A stretch of DNA of 64,000 nt from Candidatus Bathyarchaeia archaeon (lineage in GTDB: Archaea; Thermoproteota; Bathyarchaeia; Bathyarchaeales; Bathycorpusculaceae): NCBI GenBank assembly GCA_050012255.1, contig JBEKHN010000006.1:45454-109453 (forward strand). The letters are read 5' to 3'. Position 1 is the first letter of the stretch; each line of letters starts with the position of its first letter. The notes under the pieces are model-generated. The model searched no databases and was not told the origin of the DNA. It worked only from the letters and a program-made list of their open reading frames with translations. Below, piece after piece: positions 3,200-27,400 of this stretch. A program made the position numbers and the translations under genes.

Positions 3200-3271
3200 C
3201 TATTTAGACGCTTCCACAAGTCTTGGCTGACGCTACATCCCTGTATTCGCGTTTTGACCCCGTCTATTCCA

Positions 3272-3490
3272 CCCTCCCCCTCCCCCCTAGGGTACTAGTA
3301 CTGCACGTAGGCTTTCGTGAAGGCCCTAGTGGATTGGCGTGGGTCCGAGGCCAGGTGTGTGCGGAAGGCTTCGCAGAGGGTCTTGGCAAGGGTCGTAACT
3401 TTTCAATGCACTCCAACATCAAGCCGCTTACTGGTTTCAGCTGCCCCGCGCAGACCTTGCCGACACGCCTGTCCCTCCCCTCCAGGGTGC
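3272..3490 (+). ncRNA. Putative structured non-coding RNA or leader, family unknown
   Basis: Nested stems 3352-3360/3463-3471 and 3383-3394/3453-3463 plus hairpins 3310-3325 and 3361-3374. The mismatches are G-U compatible on the + strand. Confidence 0.35.
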
Positions 3491-9809: not shown

Positions 9810-9972
9810 CCTCGCTACTTCGACGCTTTTAGATATTCTGAGAAACCCCTGCTAGTGGATCAATTTGAACAAGCGTTAATCAGTAAGATGCTGCAGCTTC
9901 AGCGCAGGCTAGACTTATATGCGAAAATTCATCTAGAGGAAAATCACAGGCGCAAGTGGTTCAAGTTGGGAG

Positions 9973-10701
9973 ATGATGGTTATGGCTGATGTCTTGAAAA
10001 TCATTCAGCAGAGACGGTCAATCAGGGTTCCTTTTAATCCGAATCGTCCAGTTTCCAAGGAGAACCTGAGGCAGATCCTCGAGGCGACGCGTTGGGCGCC
10101 GACGGCTCACAACATGCAGAACTTCGAAATTCTTGTCGTTGATGACAAGGAGGTTCTGGAGGAGATTGGAAAAATCAAATCCCGTGTGTCGGAAGCGTTC
10201 ATCCGTGAGAACTACCAGCAGCTGTCATTCTCGGAAGAGGAGTTGCTTCAGAAGAAGGTCGGAATCCTCGGCACCAATTTTCCGCCGGATTGGAGGGATC
10301 CTGACAAGCTGGACAAGGCTGTTCGTGAGAGCACGCCTTCGCCCCTGAACCAACGCATCAGAGGTAGTCCGCTGCTGCTGATAGTGATTTATGATTCTAG
10401 GAAGAAAGCGCCTGCTTCCGAGGGGGATGTTTTGGGTTTCATTAGCCTGGGCTGTGTGATGGAGAACATGTGGCTTATGGCCCAGTCGCTTGGGATAAGC
10501 GTTCACATATTGAGTGTGTTCAGCGGAGATGCCGTGGAAAAAGAGGTGAAGCGAATTCTCAACATCCCTGAAAACATGAAGGTTGCTTTTGCCATCCGTC
10601 TGGGATACCCCGTCTCCAGGCCGGCTAAACACCTGAGAGTGCGCCGTGACATGGAAATGCTCACGCATCATAATGGGTTTGGGAACAAGGGCTTCAGTTG
10701 A
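9973..10701 (+). CDS. Nitroreductase family protein
   Basis: RRSIR, APTAHNMQ, ENMWLMA..LG, LGYP. Confidence 0.9.
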   Translation: MMVMADVLKIIQQRRSIRVPFNPNRPVSKENLRQILEATRWAPTAHNMQNFEILVVDDKEVLEEIGKIKSRVSEAFIRENYQQLSFSEEELLQKKVGILGTNFPPDWRDPDKLDKAVRESTPSPLNQRIRGSPLLLIVIYDSRKKAPASEGDVLGFISLGCVMENMWLMAQSLGISVHILSVFSGDAVEKEVKRILNIPENMKVAFAIRLGYPVSRPAKHLRVRRDMEMLTHHNGFGNKGFS

Positions 10702-10731
10702 GAAAACCTTGTCTTGTTTTCGCGCGCGCTG

Positions 10732-10774
10732 GTGGACCGGTGGGGACTTGAACCCCAGACCTCCTGAGTGCAAG
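10732..10774. repeat. att site: duplicated 3' half of tRNA-Ala, with the chromosomal CCA just outside it
   Basis: GTGGACCGGTGGGGACTTGAACCCCAGACCTCCTGAGTGCAAG is identical to 18937-18979; TGG at 10730-10732 reads CCA on the minus strand. Confidence 0.95.
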
Positions 10775-11623
10775 ATGATTAATGATGCAATATGGGAAAA
10801 CTTTGGTACTTGGCTATTGAAAACACACAAACAAAGGAATGCAAAAGAAGCTCTAAGAAATGCTAAGAAGTATGCTGCAATCCTGGAAAAACCCAGCATG
10901 GCTTCACAGCTTCTAATGTTAAACAAAGACCTTAGAAGAGTAGCAATGAGTTCACTGAGCAATCTATCCAAGTATTTAGGAGTCTATGATCAATGGAAAC
11001 AGACAATAAGAAATTATGGCTTGAAATGGGAAAACACAACCAGTCTAGAAACATTTCTCAGCATTCTAAACAGCAATCTGGAAGAGACAGAAATCTGGCT
11101 TAGACAAGTCATTAAGAAGCTACCGAGTGACTACTCTACAATTTTGGTATTTGATGTCTTAACTGGATTGAGACCCAGTGAAGCAGCAATGTCATGCAAA
11201 CTGATAACAGACCTTTCAAACATGAACAAGCTGGACTCGTATCTGGATGGAGATCTAATGATGTTACAGCATTTCAGATTTCCAGACTTGTTCCTAAGGA
11301 AATCAAAGAATGCATACATATCATTCATAACCCCAGAACTGCTTCAGCTTGTTCTGAGAACAAAACCAAGTATCAAATATTCAGCAATAGACACAATGAT
11401 TGGCAGACAGGGTTTCAATACCAGAACAAAGCAGTTGAGAAAACTCTATGCAACCAGGCTGAGAAACGATTTGCCTCAAGAGCTCGTTGATTTATTGCAG
11501 GGAAGAATAAGCCAAACGATATTTATGAAATTCTACTATAAGCCTCTACTAAGAGACATCCAACAGAAAACAATCAAAGCACTGCAACCTCTACAAATGG
11601 AACTCCTGTCTCAAATACAGTGA
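10733..11623 (+). CDS. Integrase C-terminal catalytic fragment Int(C), SSV-type tyrosine recombinase
   Basis: TGLRPSEA, KSK, KQLRK, LQGR, FYY. The frame runs through att (WTGGDLNPRPPECK), and there is an ATG at 10775. Confidence 0.9.
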   Translation, partial: WTGGDLNPRPPECKMINDAIWENFGTWLLKTHKQRNAKEALRNAKKYAAILEKPSMASQLLMLNKDLRRVAMSSLSNLSKYLGVYDQWKQTIRNYGLKWENTTSLETFLSILNSNLEETEIWLRQVIKKLPSDYSTILVFDVLTGLRPSEAAMSCKLITDLSNMNKLDSYLDGDLMMLQHFRFPDLFLRKSKNAYISFITPELLQLVLRTKPSIKYSAIDTMIGRQGFNTRTKQLRKLYATRLRNDLPQELVDLLQGRISQTIFMKFYYKPLLRDIQQKTIKALQPLQMELLSQIQ

Positions 11624-11826
11624 GTCCTAGAAACCATGCTCATAAGAGACTACTGAAGCCCATCATCCAGCAGAACTCAGAGACAGAACACTCAAAGCAA
11701 TATCAGAGCTAGAACAAACACTAAACTAAGTGTTGAAACAAACCGAAACACTTCTCCCTCTTTTCCATGTATACAGAACTACGGTGAAAAACTTCTAGAG
11801 GGTCTTTGAAATCTTTGAAGGAAGCT

Positions 11827-12360
11827 TTAGGCTTTTGATTGTTGAAGCTGTTGTTCTCTTTTCTTCAGTTCGTTGTATAGATATTCAAACTGCTGTAGTG
11901 ACCTTGGAGACTGGAACTGTTTTCTATATCCGTCTACTACCAGCTTGATTTTTTCCCATAGAGGTATAGCTATATAGCCAAAGAGGTCGTCAACTAATCC
12001 GAGGTCTATGAGCTTTCTATTCAGAAGCACGCCTATTTGTTCGAACATCACGTTGACTATGCTCATACCGATAATTTCTGGTGAATCAACAAACCCCGTA
12101 GTAGTAGAATAATACTTTTTCACGAATTCATCATAGTCCTTGAAATCCAAGTTGAACGTTCTTGTCAAGGCTTTCCAGAATTCTTCACTACCAAAAGTTG
12201 AGTAAATTCTCATAAGAAGGTCTGCTTGCCTTGTCTCAATTTCTGCTTGTCTCGTCTTACTCTGATGTCTTATCTCCAGAACGTAGTAGACAACCCCAAC
12301 TAACACACCTGCTGCTGCCACCATTGCAGAAATCTCGGTTATGTCAACCATTCTTAACAC
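11827..12360 (-). CDS. Membrane-anchored DUF4760-like protein, paralog 1
   Basis: N-terminal TM (ISAMVAAAGVLVGVVYY), FEQIGVL..RKLID, FEYLYNE, shared with the two paralogs. Confidence 0.7.
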   Translation of the reverse strand: MLRMVDITEISAMVAAAGVLVGVVYYVLEIRHQSKTRQAEIETRQADLLMRIYSTFGSEEFWKALTRTFNLDFKDYDEFVKKYYSTTTGFVDSPEIIGMSIVNVMFEQIGVLLNRKLIDLGLVDDLFGYIAIPLWEKIKLVVDGYRKQFQSPRSLQQFEYLYNELKKREQQLQQSKA

Positions 12361-12920
12361 CTAGAAGACTCGTCAGGAGAATTAGAATCTAAGACTGCTG
12401 GGAGAATTGCTTTCGCCCAAGTTTTCCTTAGTTGTGGTTCTTTTCTCAGAAGCTCATTATGGAGATACTCGAATCCCGCCCCTAACACTGGTTCATTGAG
12501 TTCTCTTCTAAATCCCACTGTCAGTGGCTTGGTCTTTTCATAGATTTCCTTAATCGCTGAAACTCCAAAGACATCGTAGGTCAAGCCTAGGTCAATGTGT
12601 TTTCTGTAGAGAAGAGTGCCAACCAATTCAAAGAATCCACAAACAGTAGAGATTGCCTTGTTAATTTCTAGCCTTGCTTCGGAATGTCGTGGATAATTCT
12701 TTAGGAAGTCCTCGTAGTCTTTGAATTGCAGCCTCATGATTTTCGAGAATGCATCTTGAAATTCGTTGCTATGCAACCTTGAATACAGTCTTATGAGTAG
12801 GTCTGTCTGCTTCTGCTCGTGAAGATGCCTAAGCTCCAAAACAGTCAAGGCAACACCTATCAACACACCTATTGCTGCAACAATAGCTGAAATAGAAGGT
12901 ATGTCCAACATCCTTGTCAC
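12354..12920 (-). CDS. Membrane-anchored DUF4760-like protein, paralog 2
   Basis: N-terminal TM, FFELVGTLLYRKHID, FEYLHNE. Confidence 0.7.
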   Translation of the reverse strand: MTRMLDIPSISAIVAAIGVLIGVALTVLELRHLHEQKQTDLLIRLYSRLHSNEFQDAFSKIMRLQFKDYEDFLKNYPRHSEARLEINKAISTVCGFFELVGTLLYRKHIDLGLTYDVFGVSAIKEIYEKTKPLTVGFRRELNEPVLGAGFEYLHNELLRKEPQLRKTWAKAILPAVLDSNSPDESSRC

Positions 12921-13105
12921 CCAGAAGACAAGATTAGGTGAGATCAGTATTAAAGACTACATCATAAACCATGAAAAGAACATCAAATAGAAAAGAAGCC
13001 CAATAGTAGCTTATTATGTTAATAACAGACAGAATATTGTTTACTTCTTTTCAGTCCTTGTCAGTATCTTTGGTTCTTTCCACTCTTCCCTGAGGATGCT
13101 GTAGA
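12918..13105. repeat. Direct repeat of about 190 bp (GNAT 3' end + spacer + DUF4760-like promoter); second copy at 15242-15430
   Basis: Shared blocks ATCAGTATTAAAGACTACATCA and TATGTTAATAACAGACAGAATATTGTTTACTTCTTTTC. Confidence 0.92.
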
Positions 13106-13583
13106 CAAAGGAATCTCTCCATTCTCCTCTCGTGAAGAAGTTTCTACGATGTGTTCCTTCCTTCTTGAAACCAACTTTCTCTAAGACCTTCTGAGAGGCT
13201 ACATTTCTAGGGTCTGTCTGAGCTTGAACACGGCCTATGTCTTTGGAGAGAAACAAGTAATCCACCATAATTTTGACAGCTTCAGAGCAGTAGCCTTTCC
13301 CCCTCTCGTTTGGCACCAAACTGTAGCCGATTTCTAGTTGCCTACCTGCAATGTGTAGGACGTAGAAATGGGCTATGAAACCAATTTTGCTTCCATCTTT
13401 CTTCTCTATTATGAATGGTTTCAGCTCGTTAGGGTTCTCGAGCATCTTTTCTATATCTGTTCTGGACCCCTGATGCAAGGGATTGTATTCACCGAAGACC
13501 TCAGGCTTGTTGAACCATTCTGCAAATAATGGCAGATCCTCTTTCTCTATAGTTCTCAGATTTACATTCTTACCTTCAAGCAA
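13041..13583 (-). CDS. GNAT acetyltransferase, RimJ/RimL type, paralog 1
   Basis: EIGY...RGKGY, N.ASQKVLEKVGF..EG. Confidence 0.92.
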   Translation of the reverse strand: MLEGKNVNLRTIEKEDLPLFAEWFNKPEVFGEYNPLHQGSRTDIEKMLENPNELKPFIIEKKDGSKIGFIAHFYVLHIAGRQLEIGYSLVPNERGKGYCSEAVKIMVDYLFLSKDIGRVQAQTDPRNVASQKVLEKVGFKKEGTHRRNFFTRGEWRDSFVYSILREEWKEPKILTRTEKK

Positions 13584-13611
13584 CCTCTTTCACCTTTGAT
13601 TCTTGTCTTCT

Positions 13612-13634
13612 TGTTTCAGTTCTTATGACTTGTG
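13612..13634 (-). promoter_or_regulatory. Shared 23-bp promoter module; second copy at 17415-17437
   Basis: TGTTTCAGTTCTTATGACTTGTG is identical 27-29 nt upstream of the GNAT-1 and methyltransferase start codons. Confidence 0.75.
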
Positions 13635-13714
13635 GAAACATCCATGAACGAAACACTGGCAGCGCCAAATAGCTCTATCCATGAGAACCAATCTCAGATT
13701 CCTTCTCACAAGGA

Positions 13715-13792
13715 CTAGGCATGGATTCAATATCTCTACTATTATTTCAACGATGCTAAGAGACCTATCATTAGAGTGCCTGGTAGGCCAAA
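13715..13792. repeat. Imperfect non-coding repeat of about 80 bp; second copy at about 17831-17910
   Basis: Identical core TCAACGATGCTAAGA at 13747-13761 and 17864-17878, with similar flanks. Confidence 0.8.
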
Positions 13793-13894
13793 GGTAAAAT
13801 ACTATGCATTTTCGAAGTCACAAACTTCTAGGGAGTCCCTGAAAAGGAAAGTTCACAGAGAAAGAAAAGGAAGGAAGCTATTTTCATCAAGCTG

Positions 13895-14560
13895 TTATTT
13901 TAGCTCAAATGTATGGATAGCATCGAGTTTTGGATATTTTTTGAATAAGTGAGCGTTCACTAACTCTATGGAATTAACAGCTATTTTTCCAAACTCTGTG
14001 TCCCTCAGCTTTTCTAGGTGACTAATTAGTCTGGTGAAATCCTTATTCTTCTGAAAATGCATTATGCTGATGTGAGGCAAGAAAGGATAGTCAAATTTCC
14101 TCTCTATCATCTCGTGTATTGTTTGTAGTCTTCCAAATATTTCTTCGATTTTGCCTCCATCATGAACCTCCACGAAGACAACATCAGGGAAAATGTTGAG
14201 TTTAGAAAGGAAAACGTCAAATCTGCTAAATGGTTGTAAGACTTCTTTCGCTTGATTGATTATTCTTTGCAGGTTCTCAATCAAAATATCGTCTTCATAT
14301 TTCTCTGATTTTGCTAGGAATCCAAGTCCCATTACGGATATGTGAAAATAGTCTTTTGGGAATGGGGCTACACAAGAAATAGTGGATAGCCTATTCTGAA
14401 TTTCAACTATCTTCTCAATCAGTTCTTCATTTCTGATTCTTACATGAAAAGTCAGATATTGACTTCTTCCTTTGGTCCAATCATTGTCAATCCAATATTT
14501 CTTTACATTCAATTGGATATTCTTTCTTCTTTCCCAAACATCCCTGAATCTGTTGTTCAT
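13895..14560 (-). CDS. 2H phosphoesterase (2'-5' RNA ligase family)
   Basis: Two HxS motifs (FHISV, PHISI). Confidence 0.8.
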   Translation of the reverse strand: MNNRFRDVWERRKNIQLNVKKYWIDNDWTKGRSQYLTFHVRIRNEELIEKIVEIQNRLSTISCVAPFPKDYFHISVMGLGFLAKSEKYEDDILIENLQRIINQAKEVLQPFSRFDVFLSKLNIFPDVVFVEVHDGGKIEEIFGRLQTIHEMIERKFDYPFLPHISIMHFQKNKDFTRLISHLEKLRDTEFGKIAVNSIELVNAHLFKKYPKLDAIHTFELK

Positions 14561-14776
14561 ATACTGAATTGATAATCCTTTTCGCCTAAAGTCTTTTTGA
14601 ACTATGCAGTTCAGTTAGTGCACACTACAGCACATCAAAAACACTCAAACAACCAGAACAGTCATTCAACACTATCGCAACAATTCGACAAAACAAAATT
14701 AATCTATCCTTATGCACACACTTTCTGAACTACGATGAAAAACTTCTACAGACCCTCTGAAATCTTTGGAGAAATG

Positions 14777-15244
14777 CTAGGTTTTTGGTTGTTGAAGCTT
14801 CTGGTCTCTTTTCTTCAGTTCATTATAGAGATACTCGAACCAAAAGCATTTGTCTGAATGCATTTCTTTAAGTGTAGACTCGTTCTTTTCCCATACCTGT
14901 TTCACTGGTTCAGCGAACAGTTCTCTAGCCATATCTATGTCCAAGAGTTTTCTATAGAGTAACAACCCGACTTCTTCATAGTATGTGCTCATTTTAAGAA
15001 GCTCCTTCCAACCTTGTCCCTTGATATATTCATTGAAGTCTTTCTCTCCCCTGACCTTCAGTTGATACCAGTAATTCATGACCTCTTCAGTCAATATCCC
15101 TTGGTATAATCTCAAGGTAAGGTCTGTTTGCCTTGTTCTGTTCTGATTTCTCATATCAAGTATATAGTAGACAACACCAACTAGCACACCAGCAGCAGCT
15201 ACCATTGCTGAAACAGAAGTTACGTCAAACTCCATTTGTTTCAC
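14777..15244 (-). CDS. Membrane-anchored DUF4760-like protein, paralog 3
   Basis: SAMVAAAGVLVGVVYY, YEEVGLLLYRKLLD, FEYLYNELKKR. Confidence 0.7.
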   Translation of the reverse strand: MKQMEFDVTSVSAMVAAAGVLVGVVYYILDMRNQNRTRQTDLTLRLYQGILTEEVMNYWYQLKVRGEKDFNEYIKGQGWKELLKMSTYYEEVGLLLYRKLLDIDMARELFAEPVKQVWEKNESTLKEMHSDKCFWFEYLYNELKKRDQKLQQPKT

Positions 15245-15365
15245 CCAAAAGACCAGATAACCCGCAATCAGTATTAAAGACTACATCACAAACCATGAAG
15301 AGAATGATTATTTAGAAAAGAAGCCTAATCTAAGCTCTATATGTTAATAACAGACAGAATATTGT

Positions 15366-15926
15366 TTACTTCTTTTCGGTCCTTGTCAGTATCTTTGGTT
15401 CTTTCCACTCTTCTCTGAGGATGCTGTAGAGATGGTAATCGGTCCATGCTCCTCGCACGAACAGCAGTTTTCGAATAGTCCCTTCTATCTTTAAGCCTGC
15501 TTTCTCCAAAACTTTCTGTGCCGTTTTGTTCCTTACATTTGTGCATGCTTGTATACGACCAATGTTTTTTGAGAGAAATAGGTAATCAACCATTAACTGA
15601 GTCGCTTCTGCTCCGTATCCTTTCCCTCTTTCGCTAGGAACAAAAAAGCAACCGATTTCCATCACCCCGTATGGCTGATTAATAAAATGCCAGACAAACC
15701 CCATTCTATTTCCGTCCTTCTTCTGAACTATAAACTTCTTCCACTCAATCGAAATCGCTATGTTCGGGGGATTGTCAAAATTTTGCATCAATCCTGACTT
15801 CGAAGTCTGCTCAAATACAGGATTGCTGTATTCCCCCCAGAAATACATGTTATTGAAGCATTCAGCTAGAAAATCAATGTCGTCTCTCTCCAAAACCCTC
15901 AGATTCACAGTCTTCCCTTCAAGCAA
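15366..15926 (-). CDS. GNAT acetyltransferase, RimJ/RimL type, paralog 2
   Basis: ERGKGYG, KVLEKAG..IEG; same termini as paralog 1. Confidence 0.92.
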   Translation of the reverse strand: MLEGKTVNLRVLERDDIDFLAECFNNMYFWGEYSNPVFEQTSKSGLMQNFDNPPNIAISIEWKKFIVQKKDGNRMGFVWHFINQPYGVMEIGCFFVPSERGKGYGAEATQLMVDYLFLSKNIGRIQACTNVRNKTAQKVLEKAGLKIEGTIRKLLFVRGAWTDYHLYSILREEWKEPKILTRTEKK

Positions 15927-15950
15927 ATCAAGTCACCATTCAAACCAATT

Positions 15951-16032
15951 ACTTTCGGTTCAGCTATAACTTTTCCGCAAAACCAAAAACTGACTATCTT
16001 CAAGCGGTTTTTGTCAGTATTTTTGGTTCTTT
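15951..16032. repeat. Direct repeat of about 82 bp (gene tail + promoter); second copy at 16576-16659
   Basis: Identical 31-mer ACTTTCGGTTCAGCTATAACTTTTCCGCAAA (BRE/TATA-like on the minus strand) plus the KEPKILT-coding 22-mer. Confidence 0.92.
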
Positions 16033-16551
16033 CCATTCTTCTCTTAGAATGCTGTGGAGATAGTGATCAGTCCATACTCCTCTAACGAGCGTAAGTTTTC
16101 GGATAGTCCCTTCTATTCTGAAACCTGCTTTCTCCAGAACCCTCTGTGACGCTTTGTTCCCCACGTTTGTCGTTGCTTCTATCCGAACGATGTCTTTAGA
16201 GAGAAATAGATAATCAACCATTAACTGGACTGCTTCTGTTCCATATCCTTTCCCCCTTTCGCTGGGAAGAAGAAAGTACCCGATTTCCATCGTCCCGTAT
16301 GGCTGATTAGTCCTGTGATGGACAAGCCCAATTCTGGTTCCGTCCTTCTTCTGAATGATGAACATCTTTAAGCCAAGCATTTTTTGAAACTCTGTAGGAT
16401 TATCAAAACTCTTCATCCATTCTGACTTCGACATCTGCTCCTCAATTGGGATGTAATCCGCACAGAAACCCCCGTCATTATGGCATCCAACCTCAAAATC
16501 AATGTCATCACTCTCAATTACCCTCAGATTCACAGTCCTACCTTCAAGCAA
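16000..16551 (-). CDS. GNAT acetyltransferase, RimJ/RimL type, paralog 3
   Basis: EIGY..ERGKGYG, NKASQRVLEKAGF. Confidence 0.92.
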   Translation of the reverse strand: MLEGRTVNLRVIESDDIDFEVGCHNDGGFCADYIPIEEQMSKSEWMKSFDNPTEFQKMLGLKMFIIQKKDGTRIGLVHHRTNQPYGTMEIGYFLLPSERGKGYGTEAVQLMVDYLFLSKDIVRIEATTNVGNKASQRVLEKAGFRIEGTIRKLTLVRGVWTDHYLHSILREEWKEPKILTKTA

Positions 16552-16626
16552 CTCAGTTCACCAAACCACAGAGTCACTTTCGGTTCAGCTATAACTTTTC
16601 CGCAAAGTAGGAGAACTGAAAAACCT

Positions 16627-17388
16627 TCAAGCTCTTTTTGTCAGTATCTTTGGTTCTTTATCAATAACAGCTATGTATGCTGAGTCACCAGAATCTATGA
16701 ATTCCCTGATCTTCCATCCTGTTCCTTTGAGTATCTCTTCCATTTCTTTCTTGGATACTATCAGGTAATCGAACCATCTGCCAACGCATTTCCTGAATCT
16801 TATTCTTACTCTTAACTGTCCTGCCATTCTGCCTTTTTTCTTGTTGAGCTTGTGATATTCCAAGTGGTCAGGATTGTCAGTCTTGTATGTGTCACGAGTA
16901 CTGGCAATAATCAATCCATTCTTGGAAGTCATTCTATGAAACTTCTTCAGCAATCTTCTTGCCTTCTTGAAACTGCCAAACAGCCCAAAATTGCTTCCCA
17001 TCATAATAATCGTGTCGAAGGAATTGGGCTTGAAATTCAATTCTTCAATTGACATAACTCTTGCCCGTTTCAAGCCTCTCAACTTGCAGATTTTGATCGC
17101 AAGAGGAGAACTGTCAATTCCCAACACGTCAAAACCCATCTTCTGCAAATACGGAGAATGCCTACCAGCTCCGCAACCGATGTCCAAAACCCTTCCTTTC
17201 ACGAATTCCATAGCCTTTCTATCAATGAGATCCCAATTTTCATACTCTGAAAAATAGAATCCTGGACCCTTTGGGGATGCATTAAAGTAGCCATCATCCC
17301 TTTCCACTATCTCAGAAGCTTCTTCACGTTTGTAGCAAGCCCACATCTCCTGACCAAACGTATCTTCCTCAGGCTCAAGTTTCTTCAT
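16627..17388 (-). CDS. Class I SAM-dependent methyltransferase
   Basis: [19 protein letters not shown] motifs. Confidence 0.92.
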
Positions 17389-17939
17389 GTCAAATCATTG
17401 ATTACATCTTTTCCTGTTTCAGTTCTTATGACTTGTGCTAATCCGACAATTTAACATCGAAAATCATGTCCAGCCACTTTTAATGTCAAGAACAGCATGT
17501 CAAGTGGAGCACTTACGATTAAAAAAGTCTGTCTTCAGAGTTTGACCTTTGCTTTCTAGAAGTGGAAAATCCAGATATCTGGCTGTAGCAGTGTTTTAAA
17601 CGGTCCTAGCAATTGGAAAAGAAACACACAAAGCAAATGGAATGCATCTCTCATGAAGACAGAAAGAGAGAAGCAAACAAACCTTTGTACCTTGCTAGGT
17701 ATGAATGAATACAATCCTTTTCTTATTAATTGAACATGTTGCACGCCCACACATGCATAGACACAATGATGTACTCCAATACAACAAGGTTCATTGAAGA
17801 AACAAACCTGATTTCCTTCTTCTTACAGAAGCTAAGCATAGACCAATATCTCCTATTGTTATCTCAACGATGCTAAGAAACAATCATCAGAATACCAGGT
17901 ATTCGCAAGGAGGAATTCCTAGCAGCTACGATGACTGCT

Positions 17940-18314
17940 CTACCTCCATTTATGAGGTGTAAATCTACTCTTAGGAACTGCTTTTCTGTTGTAAGAGGCT
18001 AGTCCAAACTTGTGCAATATTCTTAGCAGTATGGATGCTTGGTGCATAATCTCTCTGTGACTAAACTCCCTGCCGTTCCAGGTTTCTTTGGTAGTAAACA
18101 ACTGTCCATCCTTGATTATGAGTAATGGCTTTCCTGGATACCGATAGAATATCATGCCAGACTCATCCCATATTTCTGGAATTGCTTTAACCGACAACTC
18201 ATCGAAAAGTCCTTTGATTGAATCAGCATCAAAGTTGGATAGTTTATACCCATAGTATCTAACTATCCTATTCTTCTGATATTCAATGGGAGTGACTAAT
18301 TCTAACTCACTCAA
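17940..18314 (-). CDS. Hypothetical protein (element backbone)
   Basis: 124-aa ORF with protein-like composition, divergent from Int(N); no recognised motif. Confidence 0.6.
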   Translation of the reverse strand: MSELELVTPIEYQKNRIVRYYGYKLSNFDADSIKGLFDELSVKAIPEIWDESGMIFYRYPGKPLLIIKDGQLFTTKETWNGREFSHREIMHQASILLRILHKFGLASYNRKAVPKSRFTPHKWR

Positions 18315-18721
18315 ATCTTGACCATTCCGAACTAAGCCTGGATTAGTACTCGATCATTTAGAAGACATATCATACTATATCTGCTCTGTGTAGATACACA
18401 GTTAGTGCATAGGCTTTCTATGGACAAACAATGGAGATCAACATATGCAAAAGCACCCTAACTTACTCTTTATAATAGAATGACCCTCCATCACTTCTAA
18501 TGTCACGTTCTAAATCGGGAGTCACATTCTGGACAGAAGCTATAGAAACTAGCTCTCTTCTCTGTTGAAAGGATGTTTTCCTTTGTGCCTTTGTAGGTTG
18601 AAAGATGTCTTAAAGCACATCCGAGTTTTGATGGAACAAATAGAACGTATCCAGCCTCTGAAGAATGGTCTTTAAGGGTCCTTAAATTCTCTGATTGCTC
18701 GTCAGGAGGTCAGTGATTAGA

Positions 18722-19000
18722 ATGACTAAGATTGAATGCCCAGTATGTGGAATTTCTGGCTTTCTGCAAGTAAGAGGGACTAATGTGATGGTCCAACACT
18801 ACCAAGGATTCAGGGATAATAGAAGAATTTACATTTACCATAGAGTTCCTTATGAACTGTTTCAGAACTTGCAAGTAAATGCAAGTAAAACTAAGCAAGT
18901 AAATGAGCCTGATTTGAACCTTATTTCTAAAATGAAGTGGACCGGTGGGGACTTGAACCCCAGACCTCCTGAGTGCAAGTCAGGCGTTCATACCAACTGA
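18722..19000 (+). CDS. Integrase N-terminal fragment Int(N) with a putative Zn-binding motif
   Basis: GGAGG SD; MTKIECPVCG...QH...YH; reads in frame into att (WTGGDLNPRPPECK) and stops inside the tRNA. Confidence 0.85.
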   Translation: MTKIECPVCGISGFLQVRGTNVMVQHYQGFRDNRRIYIYHRVPYELFQNLQVNASKTKQVNEPDLNLISKMKWTGGDLNPRPPECKSGVHTN

Positions 19001-19011
19001 ACTACCGGCCC
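18938..19011 (-). tRNA. tRNA-Ala(TGC)
   Basis: Minus strand GGGCCGGTAGTTCAGTTGGTATGAACGCCTGACTTGCACTCAGGAGGTCTGGGGTTCAAGTCCCCACCGGTCCA folds as a cloverleaf with anticodon TGC and the G3-U70 identity pair. Confidence 0.97.
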
Positions 19012-19188
19012 GGGCTGCTTTCAGGAAAGAACCCGCGGTATCGAATTTAGAGCTTTCGGTATCATAGCTTTGGGAAGACGCGCTTCTGTGACTTATGATC
19101 GAGCCTTTCGAAACATGTGTGAAAAAAGTTTGTACTGGGATAAGAAAAAAGTTAGAATGGTCGATTCTGCAAGATCGATTAGTTTGGT

Positions 19189-19329
19189 CTAGAATCTTCT
19201 TGTCGAAGTTCTTCGCTTGGACCAGCATTCTCGGCAGTAAACAGGTCTGCTTGGGTCAGGTTTGAAGGGAACTTCGCACTCCTTTCCACAATCAGCACAA
19301 ACTGCCTTATGCATCTCTTTCTCTGCCAT
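19189..19329 (-). CDS. CxxC-x17-CxxC zinc-ribbon microprotein (46 aa, not in the ORF track)
   Basis: MAEKEMHKAVCADCGKECEVPFKPDPSRPVYCRECWSKRRTSTRRF; GGAG SD upstream. Confidence 0.9.
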   Translation of the reverse strand: MAEKEMHKAVCADCGKECEVPFKPDPSRPVYCRECWSKRRTSTRRF

Positions 19330-19594
19330 ATACTATTTCAACTCCTTTGATTGGTTTGTGCAGAAATTGCTTCTTGCACGACGCTATGAAATGGACTAGC
19401 AACTTATAAAACTTGCCGTGAAGAAACAAGGCCCAACGGTGGCTTCTTCCATAATGTTAGACCATGTTTCTCAATGAACGCAGTTCATTGGGAGGCCAGC
19501 TGGAGCAGACTCCTTGTCGTATCTGGCGATCCTTCAGCATCACGTTTTTAAGCAAAGTCTTGCTACCTTAGGGTTCCCTCAAACGGTGAGGCGA

Positions 19595-23137: not shown

Positions 23138-23677
23138 GTGGCTAATGAGGTTCTGGACGCCATCAGGAACAGGCGCAGCGTCTTAAGGTTTGAAAGCGCC
23201 CAAGTTGAAGAAGATAAGGTTGAAGCCATTCTCGAAGCCGGACGGTGGGCACCCTCTTGGATCAACAAGCAACCTTGGAGTTTTATAGTCGTCATAGACC
23301 AAGAAACCAAGGACGAACTCAGCGAGGTCGTTCCAACCACCTTCGTGCAGGGGCTGAAGGAAGCTCCAGTCTGCATCGCGGTCACCGTTGACGCTGACGA
23401 AGACCCGTATCACCACGTGGAAGACGGGGCAGCGGCCACACAGAACATGGCACTGGCCGCGCACAGCCTAGGACTAAACACCTCATGGATCGGAGTCTAC
23501 GACCTGACGAACCAGAAGAACTCAGCCGAATCCAAAGTCAAGGATATTCTCGAGCTTCCGAAAAAACATCGAGTGATCGCGCTCTTGCCACTTGGCCACG
23601 TTAAATACGAGGTTCCAAAGAAGGACAGAAAGACGCTTCGCCAGATAGTGTACCGAGAAAAATTCGGAAAGCGTTAG
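23138..23677 (+). CDS. Nitroreductase family protein
   Basis: RRSV, APSWINKQPW, QNMALAAHSLGL. Confidence 0.92.
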   Translation: MANEVLDAIRNRRSVLRFESAQVEEDKVEAILEAGRWAPSWINKQPWSFIVVIDQETKDELSEVVPTTFVQGLKEAPVCIAVTVDADEDPYHHVEDGAAATQNMALAAHSLGLNTSWIGVYDLTNQKNSAESKVKDILELPKKHRVIALLPLGHVKYEVPKKDRKTLRQIVYREKFGKR

Positions 23678-23789
23678 AGTACAGAACCCGTCACATCGTC
23701 TCAGGTTTTTGATTTTGACTTGATCCTGTTTGGATGGCAATCGCTATATAATGCTGCTTGCCTAACCCCTGTGGAGCGGCGACCGTTAC

Positions 23790-24332
23790 ATGGGTCACGT
23801 TGCTGTTTGGAAAGCTCTGGAACAGATGGTCACAGACTTTCGCAAGAAAGGATTAAGAGTTCCAGCAGAAATCATGAGCGACCTTAAAAATGCGAAGACC
23901 CTGATTAAAATCTTGAAGGCTGAACCGAGCCGCGTAGAAAACATTCAGAAAATTGAGAAATGCTTGGAAAACGTCGAATCCTACCTCATTTCTGAAGGCC
24001 AAAAAGAGTTCGGGGTCGAATACGCTGACCGATGGCTTGAGCAGTTGGACAAGGCCAGCAGAGAAATCCTTGATGAGGAGGACAAAGAAACGAGGTTTAT
24101 CCCTGGACTCCCAAGGCACCGAAAGTGGATTCGCGTCACATCCTCAGCAGACTTACCCCTTGAAAAACTGACGACAATTGCGGATCAGATGAGCCTCTCT
24201 TACAACGTTCACAAGAACGGCTCTCTGCTCGTCTACGGCGAAGACCAGAGCATAAAAGATTTTGTCAAGAAGATGGCTTCGAAATACGAGTCAAAGGCTG
24301 AGAAATATCGCAAAAAAGTACATAACCGTTAA
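23790..24332 (+). CDS. DUF2096-like archaeal protein
   Basis: W..LEQMVTDF..., PGLPR..KWIRV pattern. Confidence 0.7.
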   Translation: MGHVAVWKALEQMVTDFRKKGLRVPAEIMSDLKNAKTLIKILKAEPSRVENIQKIEKCLENVESYLISEGQKEFGVEYADRWLEQLDKASREILDEEDKETRFIPGLPRHRKWIRVTSSADLPLEKLTTIADQMSLSYNVHKNGSLLVYGEDQSIKDFVKKMASKYESKAEKYRKKVHNR

Positions 24333-24427
24333 AGCTTCATGGCACAGTAAATGCTTTTATAAAAAGTGCCACAGACTGTCTGCAAAAGAAAAATGCGGAC
24401 GTTTCGAAGCGTGAGGGCGCAGACTCA

Positions 24428-27400
24428 ATGCCCTACATCAAGAAAATGGAACTCAGGGGTTTCAAATCATTCGGACCGCAGGACGTTAAAATAGTCCTAG
24501 ACAAGGGTTTCACGGCGATAACAGGCCCAAACGGAAGCGGAAAAACAAACGTCCTCGATGCTTTTCTATTCTCACTCGGCGAACTGAGCACAAGAAGACT
24601 CCGTGCAGAAACCGCCGCGAAACTGATCTTCCACGGGTCAGAAAAGGCCGGGTTAGAAAGGGCCAAAATGGCCAAGGTAGTGATCCAGTTCGACAACTCA
24701 GACGGGCGCATGCCCGTCGACACAACAACAGTTACGATTTCTAGGGAAGTCTACAGGAACGGACTAAGCGTGTACAGGCTTAACGGCAGAAGAATCTCCA
24801 GAACCCACATCATGGAAATCCTTTCCATGGCCGGAATAAGCTCCGCAAGCCAAAACATAATCCTGCAGGGCACTATTACTCGACTGACGGACATCTCCCC
24901 TATGGAACGTAGAAGAATCATCGAAGACCTGATTGGAATAGGCCAGTACGACACCGAAAAAGCCGAAGCAGAAGAAAAGCTGCGAGCAGCAGACATCTCC
25001 ATACGCACCGCCATGGGCAGAATTGACGAAGTGCAGAAGAGGCTTGACGACCTAGAAAGAGAACGCAACGAACTGCTCAAAGTCAGCTTCATCCAGGCCG
25101 AACTGAGACAGTTTGAAGCGGTCAAGATCTCACACGATATGACTCAGATACAGAAGAAGGTAGAGGAAAATTCGTCGCAAGCAGACAAGGTTAAGACCAG
25201 AGTTGAAAAACTCAGAGAACTGCGTGACGGTCACAGGTCGAAAAGAAGAGAAGTTGAGGGTGAATGGCGAAGACTAAGCTCCGAAATGGTCGAGGAAGGC
25301 GGCTCTCAGGTAGTCAAGGTGCAGATAACAATCGGAGAGCTGAAATCAAAACTGACGGAGTTGGCGACCAGAATAAGCTCCGGGAAAACAACCCTGGAAG
25401 GACTCACGAGAATCAGGGAAAACAACCTCCAACAACACCAGACAATTCAAAAGGAAATTCACGAAAACCGGTTAAAGACAAGGCACTTCAGAAGCGAACA
25501 TGAAAGAATTCTTGGCCAGATAAACGAGAAACAAGCAGAACATGATACTCTAGCAAAAGAAGCCGCCCAGCTTTGGGAAAACCTTGGAAAAAACAGCAAG
25601 AAAATACGGGAGATCGAGCTTAAAATCGAGGGAGACAACAAGAGACTCGTATCCTTGAGGTCGGAATACGTAAAGAATCAGACAGCCATCAAGGTGCGGA
25701 CGAGAAGACAGAAGGACTTGAACGACCGCAAGCAACGGTTTGCAGCAACACTCACCGAGCTTGAAAAGTCTTTCTCCGAGCTTGAAAAAGTTCAGAAAGA
25801 ACAAAAAATTCAGCTGAAAAACCTGGAACGGAACCTTGAAAGAAGAAGCGCTCAAAAAGAAGCTGTTGAGAGAGAAATAGTTGAAGCAGGCAAGATAGCT
25901 GATTCAGCACGTGAAGCGGTCGTCGAGTTTGCAACCCAGAGAGAACTTGCAGAAACCGTGGCCTCAGAGGAGAAAGCCCTCAGAAGCATAGAAGAGCTGG
26001 GCGAACTGGGCGTCATCAAGGGCGTGTACGGAAGACTTCGCAACCTAGCGAAAATCGACAAGACCTACCAAAGAGCAATGGAAGCTGCATCAGTAGGATG
26101 GCTTGACGCCGTCGTCGTAAAAGACTTCGACTCGGCTTTCACGTGTACAGAAACGTTGAGAAGGATGAAACTTGGGAGAATAAAGATCATTCCCCTCGAA
26201 GGAACCACCGCGGCCAAGCCGTTCAAGATTCCCGAAAAGGAAGGCGTTCGCGGCGCTGCTGAGGCTTTCATAAAGTCTGAAAAGAGTTGTGGACCTGCGG
26301 TCCGCTTCGTTTTCGGAGACACACTCGTTGTAGCGGACGACAAGACCGCTTTCACGTTGGCCAGCCAGGGCTATCGCAGTGTAACAGTTGAGGGAGACCT
26401 CTACGAGGTTGGCGGTGCATTTGAAAGCGGTTACTACCGTGCTCCCATAGACTTTTCCACCATAATCCCAAGTGAAACAGCCATCAAGAGCCTAGACGAG
26501 GCTGTCAACGCTCTTCAGCAGCATCTTTCAAGGAGAAACGATGACATAACCAGCTATGAAGACGAAATCGACCGAACTCGCGTTGAAATCGCCCGCTTGT
26601 CCGAAGCCATAACAACGTTAGACAGGGAAATCGTCAGGGTGAAAAGAAGCGTCAGGAGAACAAGGTCCAACGTTAGACGCGTTGATCACTACATCGTTCG
26701 AATCAACAAAGAAATCGAGAATGAGAAAGCCCAGATGTGGGTGCACAGCGCTGAGAGGAGCTCGATCCTGAAGGAGATGCGAAGACTCCAGAACGAGTTG
26801 GCAGTTCTGAGAAAAAGGACAGACCCTGGGCACATTCAGGAAATGGAAGTCAATAGGGAGAAACTGTCAGAAGAGATAATCACTCTGAGGCAGAAGCTGG
26901 GAACAAGCCAGACGGAAATCTCAACGCTGCAGTCGCAGTTCGACAACGTTCTGAGGGTTGGGTACCAGAACTCAAAGATTCAGACCTCAAAGGTTGAGCA
27001 GCAATTGCGGAAGGTAGAGAAAGATGTGGAGGATGCATTGCAGCAGAGGGAAGGACTGAAGCAGGAACTTTCGCAACTGGAGAAGAACCGAGTTGAACTT
27101 TCAAAGACAGTTTTCTCAGCAAGGGAGGAGGCAAAGAAATTCACGAGCCAGATTGACGACATAGACAAAGAACTTCGCAAGGTTGACGCTGAGTATGAAC
27201 AAGTCGACCGTCTGCAAAACCAGCTCCAGCTGAACGTCCAAACGTCTCTTCTGCAGCTTGAACAGTACCAAAACCAGCTGAGACTTTCCGGTTATAAACA
27301 ACCACTGACTGTGACTCCGAAACAGGTTGAGGAAGCTGAAACCTCCATGAAGATGATGCAGTTTGAACTTGAAAGAATAGGCGCAGTCAACCAGCTTGCG

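Follow-up and report, generated by a model that had tools for sequence, protein, structure and literature searches.

An 8.2-kb integrated element (positions 10732-18979) was identified in the tRNA-Ala(TGC) gene of a 64,000-nucleotide (nt) stretch of DNA, referred to here as the window, from a Candidatus Bathyarchaeia archaeon (assembly GCA_050012255.1, contig JBEKHN010000006.1, positions 45,454 to 109,453 of the forward strand). The element carries eight co-oriented minus-strand genes at 11.8-17.4 kb, encoding three GNAT acetyltransferases, three DUF4760 proteins, one 2H phosphoesterase and one S-adenosylmethionine (SAM) methyltransferase. Interspersed with these genes are re-used sequence modules: P1, a putative terminator-promoter; P2 (module A), found upstream of genes; I1, the spacer between GNAT and DUF4760 genes; T1, a tail module; and the conserved 3' tail of the GNAT genes. 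On balance, we consider it probable that these modules act as portable homology for recombination, bracketing exchangeable gene units of the integrative element. The genome bearing the window, G000, is a metagenome-assembled genome (MAG; 98.5% complete, 5% contamination). Its relatives are designated G001, G003, G004, G007, G008, G009 and G010, and C-numbers denote contigs.

The five repeat families listed in an initial annotation of this DNA were all recovered by pairwise alignment, at 12918-13105/15242-15430 (165 of 189 aligned columns identical, 87%), 15951-16032/16576-16659 (71 of 84, 84.5%), 13612-13634/17415-17437 (23/23), 13747-13761/17864-17878 (15/15) and 11776-11811/14727-14762 (30 of 36, 83%). 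Their description as near-identical holds for the cores, the longest exact strings common to the copies being 38, 31, 23 and 17 nt, but not for the whole spans (83-87%). The 15-mer repeat had two matches, against 0.01 expected by chance, and the 22-nt P1 core, with up to three mismatches, had two matches in the window, against 0.00 expected. The gene bodies are 63-75% identical in GNAT pairs and 52-59% identical in DUF4760 pairs. When GNAT1 and GNAT2 were compared in 30-nt windows, identity reached 0.97-1.00 over the last 60 nt (13101-13041), as opposed to 0.23-0.83 in the body, so that the annotated pattern of near-identical paralogue ends and diverged centres was reproduced; the P1 window at 16603 scored 0.97 in the identity profile. 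The number, orientation and families of the eight genes also agreed with the open reading frames (ORFs) and with Pfam and tblastn results.

The upstream regions of GNAT1 and the methyltransferase gene have module A/P2 in common, in blocks of ~95 nt and 26 nt (25/26 identical), and the copy before the methyltransferase gene is interrupted by ~375 nt of non-coding DNA. The non-coding stretch at 17419-17806 (~390 nt) is 92% identical to DNA of G007 contig C6, in which its neighbour is a 37-nt leftover of the 3' end of a DUF4760 gene; a related element from a different MAG matches parts of the stretch at 77-85% identity. This stretch gave no Rfam match and no convincing ORF. T1 also stands directly after the integrase gene in a related element.

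Among 50 distinct contexts, conservation of P1 extends from about -17 to +25 around the core, that is, over ~43 nt. Taken in gene orientation, P1 comprises a possible stop triplet, CAGTTTTTGGTTTT, GCGGAAAAG, TTATAG and CTGAACCGAAAGT, and is followed by GGTGA and the start codon; its T5 and T4 runs precede an A-rich stretch and TTATAG. The first triplet is the real stop codon of the upstream GNAT and methyltransferase genes, in which the frame was examined. The first start codon lies a median of 29 nt past the core. Of 49 copies, 45 have an ORF of 80 or more amino acids (aa) beginning no further than 110 nt downstream, compared with 8 of 46 in the opposite direction and 124 of 300 random positions. 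This layout fits the archaeal TATA box, A-rich B recognition element (BRE) and hairpin-free poly-U termination, as described in PMC7289017. We infer that P1 acts as an oligo-T terminator for the upstream gene and as a BRE/TATA-like promoter for the downstream gene, and it probably holds an operator as well. A promoter-like module precedes most individual genes of the array, and both the placement of the ORFs and the anatomy of P1 agree with the earlier proposal that promoters are carried on the modules.

A general stem-loop upstream of P1 was considered and rejected (mean z -0.90 for 17 contexts with a T-run extension and -0.56 for 33 without it); among the 50 contexts, strong stems were confined to those preceded by a GNAT tail. 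Inspection of the same contexts by eye revealed neither terminal inverted repeats nor target duplications of the transposon kind. C/A-rich runs such as CCCAACCCAACCC or GGGATAAAAC...CCCC were noticed upstream of several P1 copies (L051, L026, L046 and L002; C1 and C21 of G000), and one of these runs forms a strong hairpin (z -3.1).

Four gene-sized segments of high identity, bordered at modules, are shared between genomes. Over long flanks, the background identity to G000 is ~67-82% for G003, G004, G008 and G009, and 91-95% for G001 and G007. The first segment (15998-16605, 608 nt), comprising P1, the leader and GNAT3, is 96.4% identical to G003, and similarity ceases at the base immediately preceding P1 and three bases past the stop codon; judging from the ORFs, its neighbours in G003 are DNA-glycosylase-like genes. 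The second, a P1-2H unit on C1 (764 nt), is 97.3% identical to G008, the match beginning at base one of P1 and continuing 24 nt past the stop codon. The third, a P1-GNAT unit of ~570-610 nt, is 93-96% identical among G001, G004 and G009. It starts at P1 and ends either inside the GNAT tail (G004 pairs) or at the stop codon (G009 versus G001), and beyond it one genome has spacer I1 and DUF4760, while the other has a spacer and the next P1. The fourth, P1-HD-GNAT on C27 (1310 nt), is 98.1% identical to G001, has unrelated flanks, and ends 12 nt into the next P1.

In a tree of 24 GNATs, GNAT1 clusters with sequences from G001, G004, G007 and G009, and GNAT2 and GNAT3 with those from G008 and G003. 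The GNAT3-P1-GNAT2 tandem is also present in the chromosome of the distant relative G008, at 71% identity, with one copy split there into two ORFs. Judged by their sequences, the three GNATs are old paralogues and not a recent triplication. The rejection of simple tandem duplication and decay in the initial annotation was therefore upheld, as the GNATs do not form one clade and the GNAT3-GNAT2 tandem is also present in a distant relative; recent tandem duplication plus purifying selection did not account for the identity profiles.

Several observations weigh against a recombinational role of the modules. Selection alone explains much of the flank conservation, since spacer I1 is about as conserved between species (69-77% versus the G001 and G004 copies) as within the element (82% between its two copies); two of its blocks do not vary among four copies taken from three genomes. 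The synonymous excess in the GNAT tail is modest: same-residue codon identity averages 0.68, as against 0.53 for the body (related sequences; one-sided p 0.02). Because conservation of the modules is general, a border that coincides with one shows only that a crossover took place in it or further inside. The identity of the fourth segment (98.1%) is only slightly above the 91-95% background of the C27/G001 pair. For G004 versus G001, the divergent 5' untranslated region between P1 and the ORF points to a probable crossover at the ORF start rather than in P1. The G003 copy of the GNAT3 cassette has no second module downstream, so a simple double crossover there would require the assumption that a resident GNAT gene was replaced. 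The promoter role of P1 rests on its sequence. G000 is a MAG, and the gene order across exact 31-38 nt repeats depends on the original assembly. Finally, no recombination intermediate, circle or same-strain variant was seen, and neither an empty-site joint nor a circle joint was present among the 15 joints listed (162 further ones exist) from contigs of four public metagenome runs. The contig joints 13637>14729, 15360>16005 and 16563>17409 were considered as same-strain rearrangements and set aside; their sides are 20-36 nt long and they probably come from related organisms.

Some of these points would be expected if the modules were nothing but conserved regulatory sites of an old gene family, inherited both vertically and horizontally, with genes gained by ordinary duplication or capture of chromosomal segments, and with ordinary transfers whose borders only appear to be at modules. 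The modest synonymous excess and the old age of the GNAT3-GNAT2 tandem suit this explanation, as does the conservation of I1 and P1 across species and also across families. Identical P1 cores occur in genomes in which the GNAT and DUF4760 proteins share only 43-53% identity. Among 256 GNAT pairs with an overall identity of at most 80%, 30 show at least 93% identity in the 45-nt tail window, compared with 0-4 pairs in other windows, and ten almost invariant residues account for much of this tail identity. We nevertheless regard selection as the sole cause as rather unlikely. All four gene-sized segments begin at P1 and end at the stop codon or tail, the DNA on either side being unrelated, and one and the same promoter module stands before unrelated genes (GNAT, DUF4760, 2H, HD and hydrolase genes). 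Function accounts for the constancy of the modules, and the exchange pattern shows what this constancy permits. Exchange of gene bodies through conserved flanks, as initially proposed, is supported by the 93-98% identical gene-sized segments; part of the flank conservation is to be credited to purifying selection.

Traces of past joining events were found at several places. The methyltransferase ends with the GNAT tail KEPKILT, which is missing from six homologues that end two to a few residues past the equivalent EK. The HD-domain gene on C27 and its G001 copy begin with the GNAT leader and ~13 GNAT codons. The 2H gene of the window retains only the 3' half of P1, while its relatives on C1 and in G008 have the entire module. 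Such junctions would be the expected leftovers of deletions and of unequal or illegitimate exchanges in arrays. That the fusion junctions lie exactly at module edges argues against selection as the only cause. Several junctions fall inside coding sequence, for which reason general recombination fits better than a site-specific system.

The modules are widespread in this group of archaea. The DNA of the element matches nine other contigs of G000, and that of the array has matches in nine of the ten other genomes of the genus. The 31-nt P1 motif, with up to six mismatches, has nine matches in G000. For the 22-nt core, 12 matches were found in G000 with up to two mismatches, and 10, 12, 9, 18 and 13 matches in five relatives with up to three mismatches (reversed control, 0). 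At order level, the core with up to two mismatches is present in 20 of 151 sampled genomes, G000 included, while the reversed control again gave 0; the compared genomes are related and are samples of their groups. By family, and without G000, the P1-bearing genomes amount to 3/35, 8/25, 7/35 and 1/3, with none in eight other families (e.g. 0/34), a patchiness that fits poorly with a lineage-wide regulon and hence with the purely regulatory explanation. Exact copies of the 22-nt core occur in another family. Ten loci from eight of these P1-bearing genomes hold 13 P1 copies, one of which leads to a GNAT (53% identical to GNAT1), one to a DUF4760 (43%) and one to a GNAT-type leader; the remaining copies have other ORFs downstream or none. 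The repeats are therefore not limited to this locus, being genome-, genus- and order-wide.

In contigs of the four public metagenome runs, the bin holding P1 had ~100x the depth of its neighbours, and many different sequences continue from position 15953 and from 15988-15992. A degenerate P1 core was found in only two contigs of a viral collection, and P1 was accordingly dismissed as a common viral promoter in that collection. The split-integrase family represented in the element is present in 35 of the 151 genomes, P1 is present in 20, and 7 genomes have the two together (odds ratio 2.0); expressed differently, the family occurs in 7 of 20 P1-bearing genomes versus 28 of 131 others (Fisher two-sided p 0.25). 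Given this weak association, the integrase family is at most one carrier of the modules, and not their engine.

Paralogues of the cargo genes are found elsewhere in G000, namely GNAT genes on C14, C15, C27 (two) and C3, DUF4760 genes on C15 and C21, a 2H gene on C1 and methyltransferase genes on C8 and C4. The P1 loci of this genome lie in insertions or mosaic stretches absent from close relatives. On C15, a 3.7-kb insertion (~23600-27330; L052 6615-10330) contains P1-GNAT, P1-DUF4760, an AsnC/Lrp-type regulator and an archaeal phage integrase, and is missing from the syntenic sites of G001 and G007. On C1, where synteny with G001 stops before a P1-2H unit, the gene for a 475-aa tyrosine recombinase comes after the unit; this P1 locus, too, is part of an integrase-bearing insertion that G001 and G007 lack. 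The cassettes of C14 are located within a mosaic stretch, and C27 has a co-oriented row of hydrolase, GNAT, HD, M29 peptidase, 2H and GNAT genes adjoining toxin-antitoxin genes. Some chromosomal methyltransferase homologues (C4 of G000, 85894-86621; L013 and L017) directly adjoin tRNA-like sequence, and the C4 copy is broken into two frames.

The sharp edges of the modules, with their many different flanks, and the recurrence of borders at the same edges bring to mind a site-specific system, in which P1 and/or the tail would be recognition sites of a dedicated recombinase moving promoter-bearing cassettes. Integrases adjoin three cassette loci in G000, the cargo is of the kind typical of integron cassettes, in which acetyltransferases are prevalent (bioRxiv 10.1101/2022.02.06.479319), and both the 3' half of P1 and the GNAT tail were seen by eye to contain a similar word, GAACC..AAAG..TGAC. 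The GAACC common to the att site, P1 and the tail was set aside as a hint of a shared site, being too short. We consider a system of this kind very unlikely. No integron integrase model was matched: both integrase halves gave 0 NCBIfam families in the search for an IntI-type recombinase, and in Pfam only a weak match to the archaeal phage integrase. In the search for attC hairpins, made by folding only, one of six junctions was significant (GNAT3-to-P1, -15.3 kcal/mol, z -2.7); hairpins were seen at three further junctions after a GNAT tail, and no general stem-loop was apparent. Breakpoints vary in position: they fall on the P1 5' edge, within P1 on either side of the TATA part, within the tail and within ORF starts. 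In addition, the split-integrase family is not clearly tied to P1. As a mechanism, the integron analogy of the initial annotation was not supported, there being no integron integrase, no recurrent hairpin site, and junctions inside coding sequence.

A broader version of this idea is that P1 and the GNAT-type tail are the ends of an archaeal gene-cassette system with a dedicated recombinase, ferried between Bathyarchaeia genera by small split-integrase elements. It agrees with the sharp edges, the recurrent borders, the patchy order-wide distribution of exact 22-nt copies and the integron-like cargo. Against it stand the variability of the breakpoints and the absence of a linked recombinase, and in our view there is little chance that it is correct.

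A perfect (100%) 43-nt direct repeat at 10732-10774 and 18937-18979 equals the 3' part of tRNA-Ala(TGC) (18937-19011), which agrees with the earlier placement of the array in a tRNA-Ala element. Two plus-strand ORFs cross the repeat copies in one frame, and both encode WTGGDLNPRPPECK; the C-terminal ORF, listed as 10646-11623, enters the element from outside through attL. Joined in silico, the two halves give 377 codons with 0 internal stops. By sequence, this layout is that of a Sulfolobus spindle-shaped virus (SSV)-type integrase with the attachment (att) site inside its gene, split by integration, and the C-terminal stretch LQGRISQTIFMKFYY looks like the tyrosine recombinase R...Y box. The G+C content is 0.38-0.41 within the element versus 0.44-0.53 outside. 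The element is missing at the same tRNA in G001 and G007, the closest relatives with the region assembled, whose flanks are 91-95% identical, and the gene order is therefore not the same in relatives. At this site, G001 has 2 kb of other DNA, and G007 has genes for Hsp20, GNAT, a membrane protein and an Lrp-type regulator.

Integrases 62-76% identical to that of the element occur in further Candidatus Bathyarchaeota MAGs. In three cases the same tRNA-Ala(TGC) repeat flanks the gene; these elements measure only 2.4-4.8 kb and have a different cargo (DUF4760 plus unknown genes, an HNH protein, and a NosD-like protein). The N-terminal half lies beside the right-hand repeat in two of the three related elements having both repeats; an ORF upstream of the integrase in L061 was examined as a candidate N-terminal half and rejected. 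A second split-integrase element was observed in G000 at C25 5687-8499 (L060); it is 2.8 kb long, lies in tRNA-Lys(CTT) between copies of a 55-nt perfect direct repeat, and carries two small ORFs without a Pfam family.

Chimeric metagenome assembly, stringing together paralogues from several loci or strains through repeats, would be an extremely unlikely origin of the array. Exact 31-38 nt repeats do exist, and in the metagenome run that best represents this genome the 31-mer contigs end precisely at these repeats. In the same run, the unique pieces of the element and both flanks have equal depth (11.7-17.9), which indicates that these pieces belong to one genome. The matched att sites and matched integrase halves at the ends of the element, together with similar arrays in a single-contig relative and in others, also speak against an artefact.

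Table 1. Features of the integrated element and its tRNA gene, in window coordinates
Feature	Position	Strand	Remarks
attL, left copy of 43-nt repeat	10732..10774	.	Repeat family, 100%; equals tRNA-Ala 3' part
Split SSV-type integrase, C-terminal part	10775..11623	+	Phage_integr_3, E 1.4e-4, 22.2 bits, below 27-bit cut-off
T1 tail module, copy 1	11776..11823	-	Downstream of DUF4760 gene 1; T5 run; 83%
DUF4760 gene 1, 177 aa	11827..12360	-	Pfam E 5.7e-10
DUF4760 gene 2, 188 aa	12354..12920	-	Pfam E 1e-11; 7-nt overlap with gene 1
I1 spacer, copy 1, between GNAT and DUF4760	12921..13040	-	82% between copies
GNAT1, Acetyltransf_3, 180 aa	13041..13583	-	Pfam E 2.9e-25; conserved tail is last ~75 nt, 13041-13116
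Module A/P2, copy 1, upstream of GNAT1	13596..13785	-	Blocks 13596-13634 and 13702-13785
T1-like copy downstream of 2H gene	13817..13844	-	79%
2H phosphoesterase (2_5_RNA_ligase2), 221 aa	13895..14560	-	Pfam E 2.5e-11
P1 3'-half remnant before 2H gene, TATA part missing	14601..14617	-	Homology to P1-bearing 2H cassettes stops at 14617
T1 tail module, copy 2	14727..14774	-	Pairwise repeat alignment
DUF4760-like gene 3, 155 aa	14777..15244	-	Pfam E 2e-4, 22 bits, under 25-bit cut-off
I1 spacer, copy 2	15245..15365	-	Pairwise alignment
GNAT2, 186 aa	15366..15926	-	Pfam
P1 terminator-promoter module (putative), copy 1, between GNAT3 stop and GNAT2	15951..15998	-	T-runs, A-rich stretch, TTATAG, CTGAACCGAAAGT
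GNAT3, 183 aa	16000..16551	-	Pfam
P1 module (putative), copy 2	16576..16606	-	31/31 identical to copy 1
SAM methyltransferase, 253 aa	16627..17388	-	Pfam; last ~9 codons (16627-16659) are GNAT tail
Module A/P2, copy 2, upstream of methyltransferase	17398..17901	-	Blocks 17398-17437 and 17819-17901
orf124	17940..18314	-	Family searches: no family
Split integrase, N-terminal part	18695..18979	+	CxxC motif near start; ends in attR
tRNA-Ala(TGC)	18937..19011	-	68.6 bits; 3' 43 nt (18937-18979) is attR

Regarding the individual cargo genes, the product of DUF4760 gene 1 is 40% identical to the DUF4760 protein adjoining the integrase in a related element, DUF4760-like gene 3 was connected to the other two by tblastn, and the 2H protein has 84% aa identity with its paralogue on C1. 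The ORF found at the place equivalent to orf124 in a related element is unrelated to it. The order GNAT, DUF4760 and sometimes a second DUF4760 recurs in G001, G004 and G007, and GNAT plus one or two DUF4760 may form a functional unit of two or three genes. Where this order is found (window 11827-13583 and 14777-15926; L013, L016, L017 and L018), the conserved spacer has a TATA-like box of its own. A defence-system reading of the cargo was discarded, since PADLOC gave 0 families for 10 of 11 proteins and the methyltransferase matched only the methyltransferase model of a candidate system. An Rfam scan of 10500-19300 detected the tRNA only, and the spacers had no RNA family.

Outside the element, the nitroreductase gene at 9910-10700, next to attL, shows 94% identity to distant G009, as does its 3' end to G003, while the genes around it are at ~70-80%; it is likely, from these identities, to be a further transfer at the hot spot of the element. 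A stretch of ~80 nt at 19300-19380, shortly past the tRNA, has many matches in G000 and its relatives (74-89%). A dispersed repeat at 3230-3480 (~180-250 nt, 73-93% identity), with dozens of copies in G000, G001, G007 and G010, looks like an element of the miniature inverted-repeat transposable element or short interspersed nuclear element type.

Returning to recombination at the modules, we infer the following route and order of events. A small cryptic integrative element inserted in tRNA-Ala(TGC) by means of its SSV-type integrase, splitting the integrase gene. Its cargo may be viewed as a mosaic row of free-standing transcription units drawn from an accessory gene pool (GNAT, DUF4760, 2H and methyltransferase; elsewhere HD and hydrolases) that is common to the genus and patchy in the order, each unit being bracketed by P1, P2/module A, I1, T1 and the GNAT 3' tail. 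Selection on regulatory function would keep these modules near constant while the gene bodies diverge, and the brackets would in this way supply 20-45 nt of near-perfect homology at both ends of differing genes. Short homologies suffice for recombination in some archaea, as is known from Sulfolobus. General recombination in or beside the modules, with occasional illegitimate joins, could then replace, add and delete gene bodies, both within a genome and between species. Replacement of a gene body between modules would produce high-identity segments bounded by modules, and recombination between neighbouring module copies would delete or duplicate units; the start-to-start spacing of the GNAT2, GNAT3 and methyltransferase tails, 627-628 nt, fits the latter. 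Pieces of genes would occasionally be fused, and units stacked on the small integrative element could then be carried to other genomes.

Bathyarchaeia are abundant, uncultured archaea of sediment and peat, and little is known about how their flexible genome is built. The locus shows a concrete unit of exchange, a single gene with its own putative terminator-promoter bracket, and suggests a plausible way in which such units are swapped and stacked in the chromosome and in small integrative elements. If this is true, the idea of a regulatory cassette as a recombination handle extends from T4-type phages to archaeal cells, a native promoter candidate becomes available for a lineage without genetic tools, and the 22-nt core can serve as a sequence tag to find mobile accessory genes in metagenomes.

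Full-text searches of a limited literature collection found no description of such modules in archaea. The array was compared with four known systems. Integrons, which have been reported in Archaea, resemble it in their co-oriented small single-gene units, conserved junction element, acetyltransferase-rich cargo and units common to distant genomes (bioRxiv 10.1101/2022.02.06.479319). Unlike an integron, the array has no IntI-type integrase, no attI or cassette promoter (Pc) and no single fixed breakpoint, and each unit has its own promoter-like module. With cryptic SSV1-like-integrase elements (PMC6563490), the element shares the tRNA gene site and the absence of viral or plasmid hallmark genes, and its 8.2 kb falls within the reported 2.6-98 kb. 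It differs from them in that its cargo is an array of paralogous, module-bracketed accessory genes, and these genes are also found outside such elements.

Putative mobile promoters are highly similar upstream sequences that stand before unrelated genes, whether in one genome or in different taxa, including taxa separated at high rank, and that move by an unknown route (PMC3575422); P1 resembles them in this. The survey that described them set a minimum of 80% identity across 50 nt or more in the region from -150 to -50, and found none that Archaea and Bacteria had in common (PMC3575422); it deals with promoter reuse itself and not with bracketed gene units. The identity of P1 copies is far above 80%, but their conserved span is only ~43 nt. 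In contrast to mobile promoters, P1 includes the predicted core promoter and is tied to a predicted terminator, and the whole gene unit appears to move.

The closest counterpart in its workings is provided by the promoter early stem-loop (PeSL) cassettes of T4-type phages (PMC2839356; PMC4122927). A PeSL is a composite terminator/promoter motif between a stop codon and the Shine-Dalgarno sequence or start of the next gene, and P1 is alike in sequence organization. PeSLs are concentrated in variable regions before small non-essential genes, as is P1, and insertions, deletions and replacements between relatives are bordered by the motif, as are the four segments described here; in the phages, such differences have been ascribed to homologous recombination between copies (PMC2839356; PMC4122927). 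P1 differs in having a BRE/TATA-like instead of a sigma-70 promoter and an oligo-T run instead of a stem-loop, and in residing in a cellular chromosome and small integrative elements and not in a lytic phage. Furthermore, a single P1 motif is near-identical across genera and families, and is so far known as a sequence. Mini-circles formed by recombination between neighbouring motifs are a further mark of PeSL cassettes; for P1, no circle joint was present among the contig joints listed. While host, promoter type and terminator type exclude P1 from membership in the PeSL group, the likeness between the two, on our analysis, is one in the way of working.

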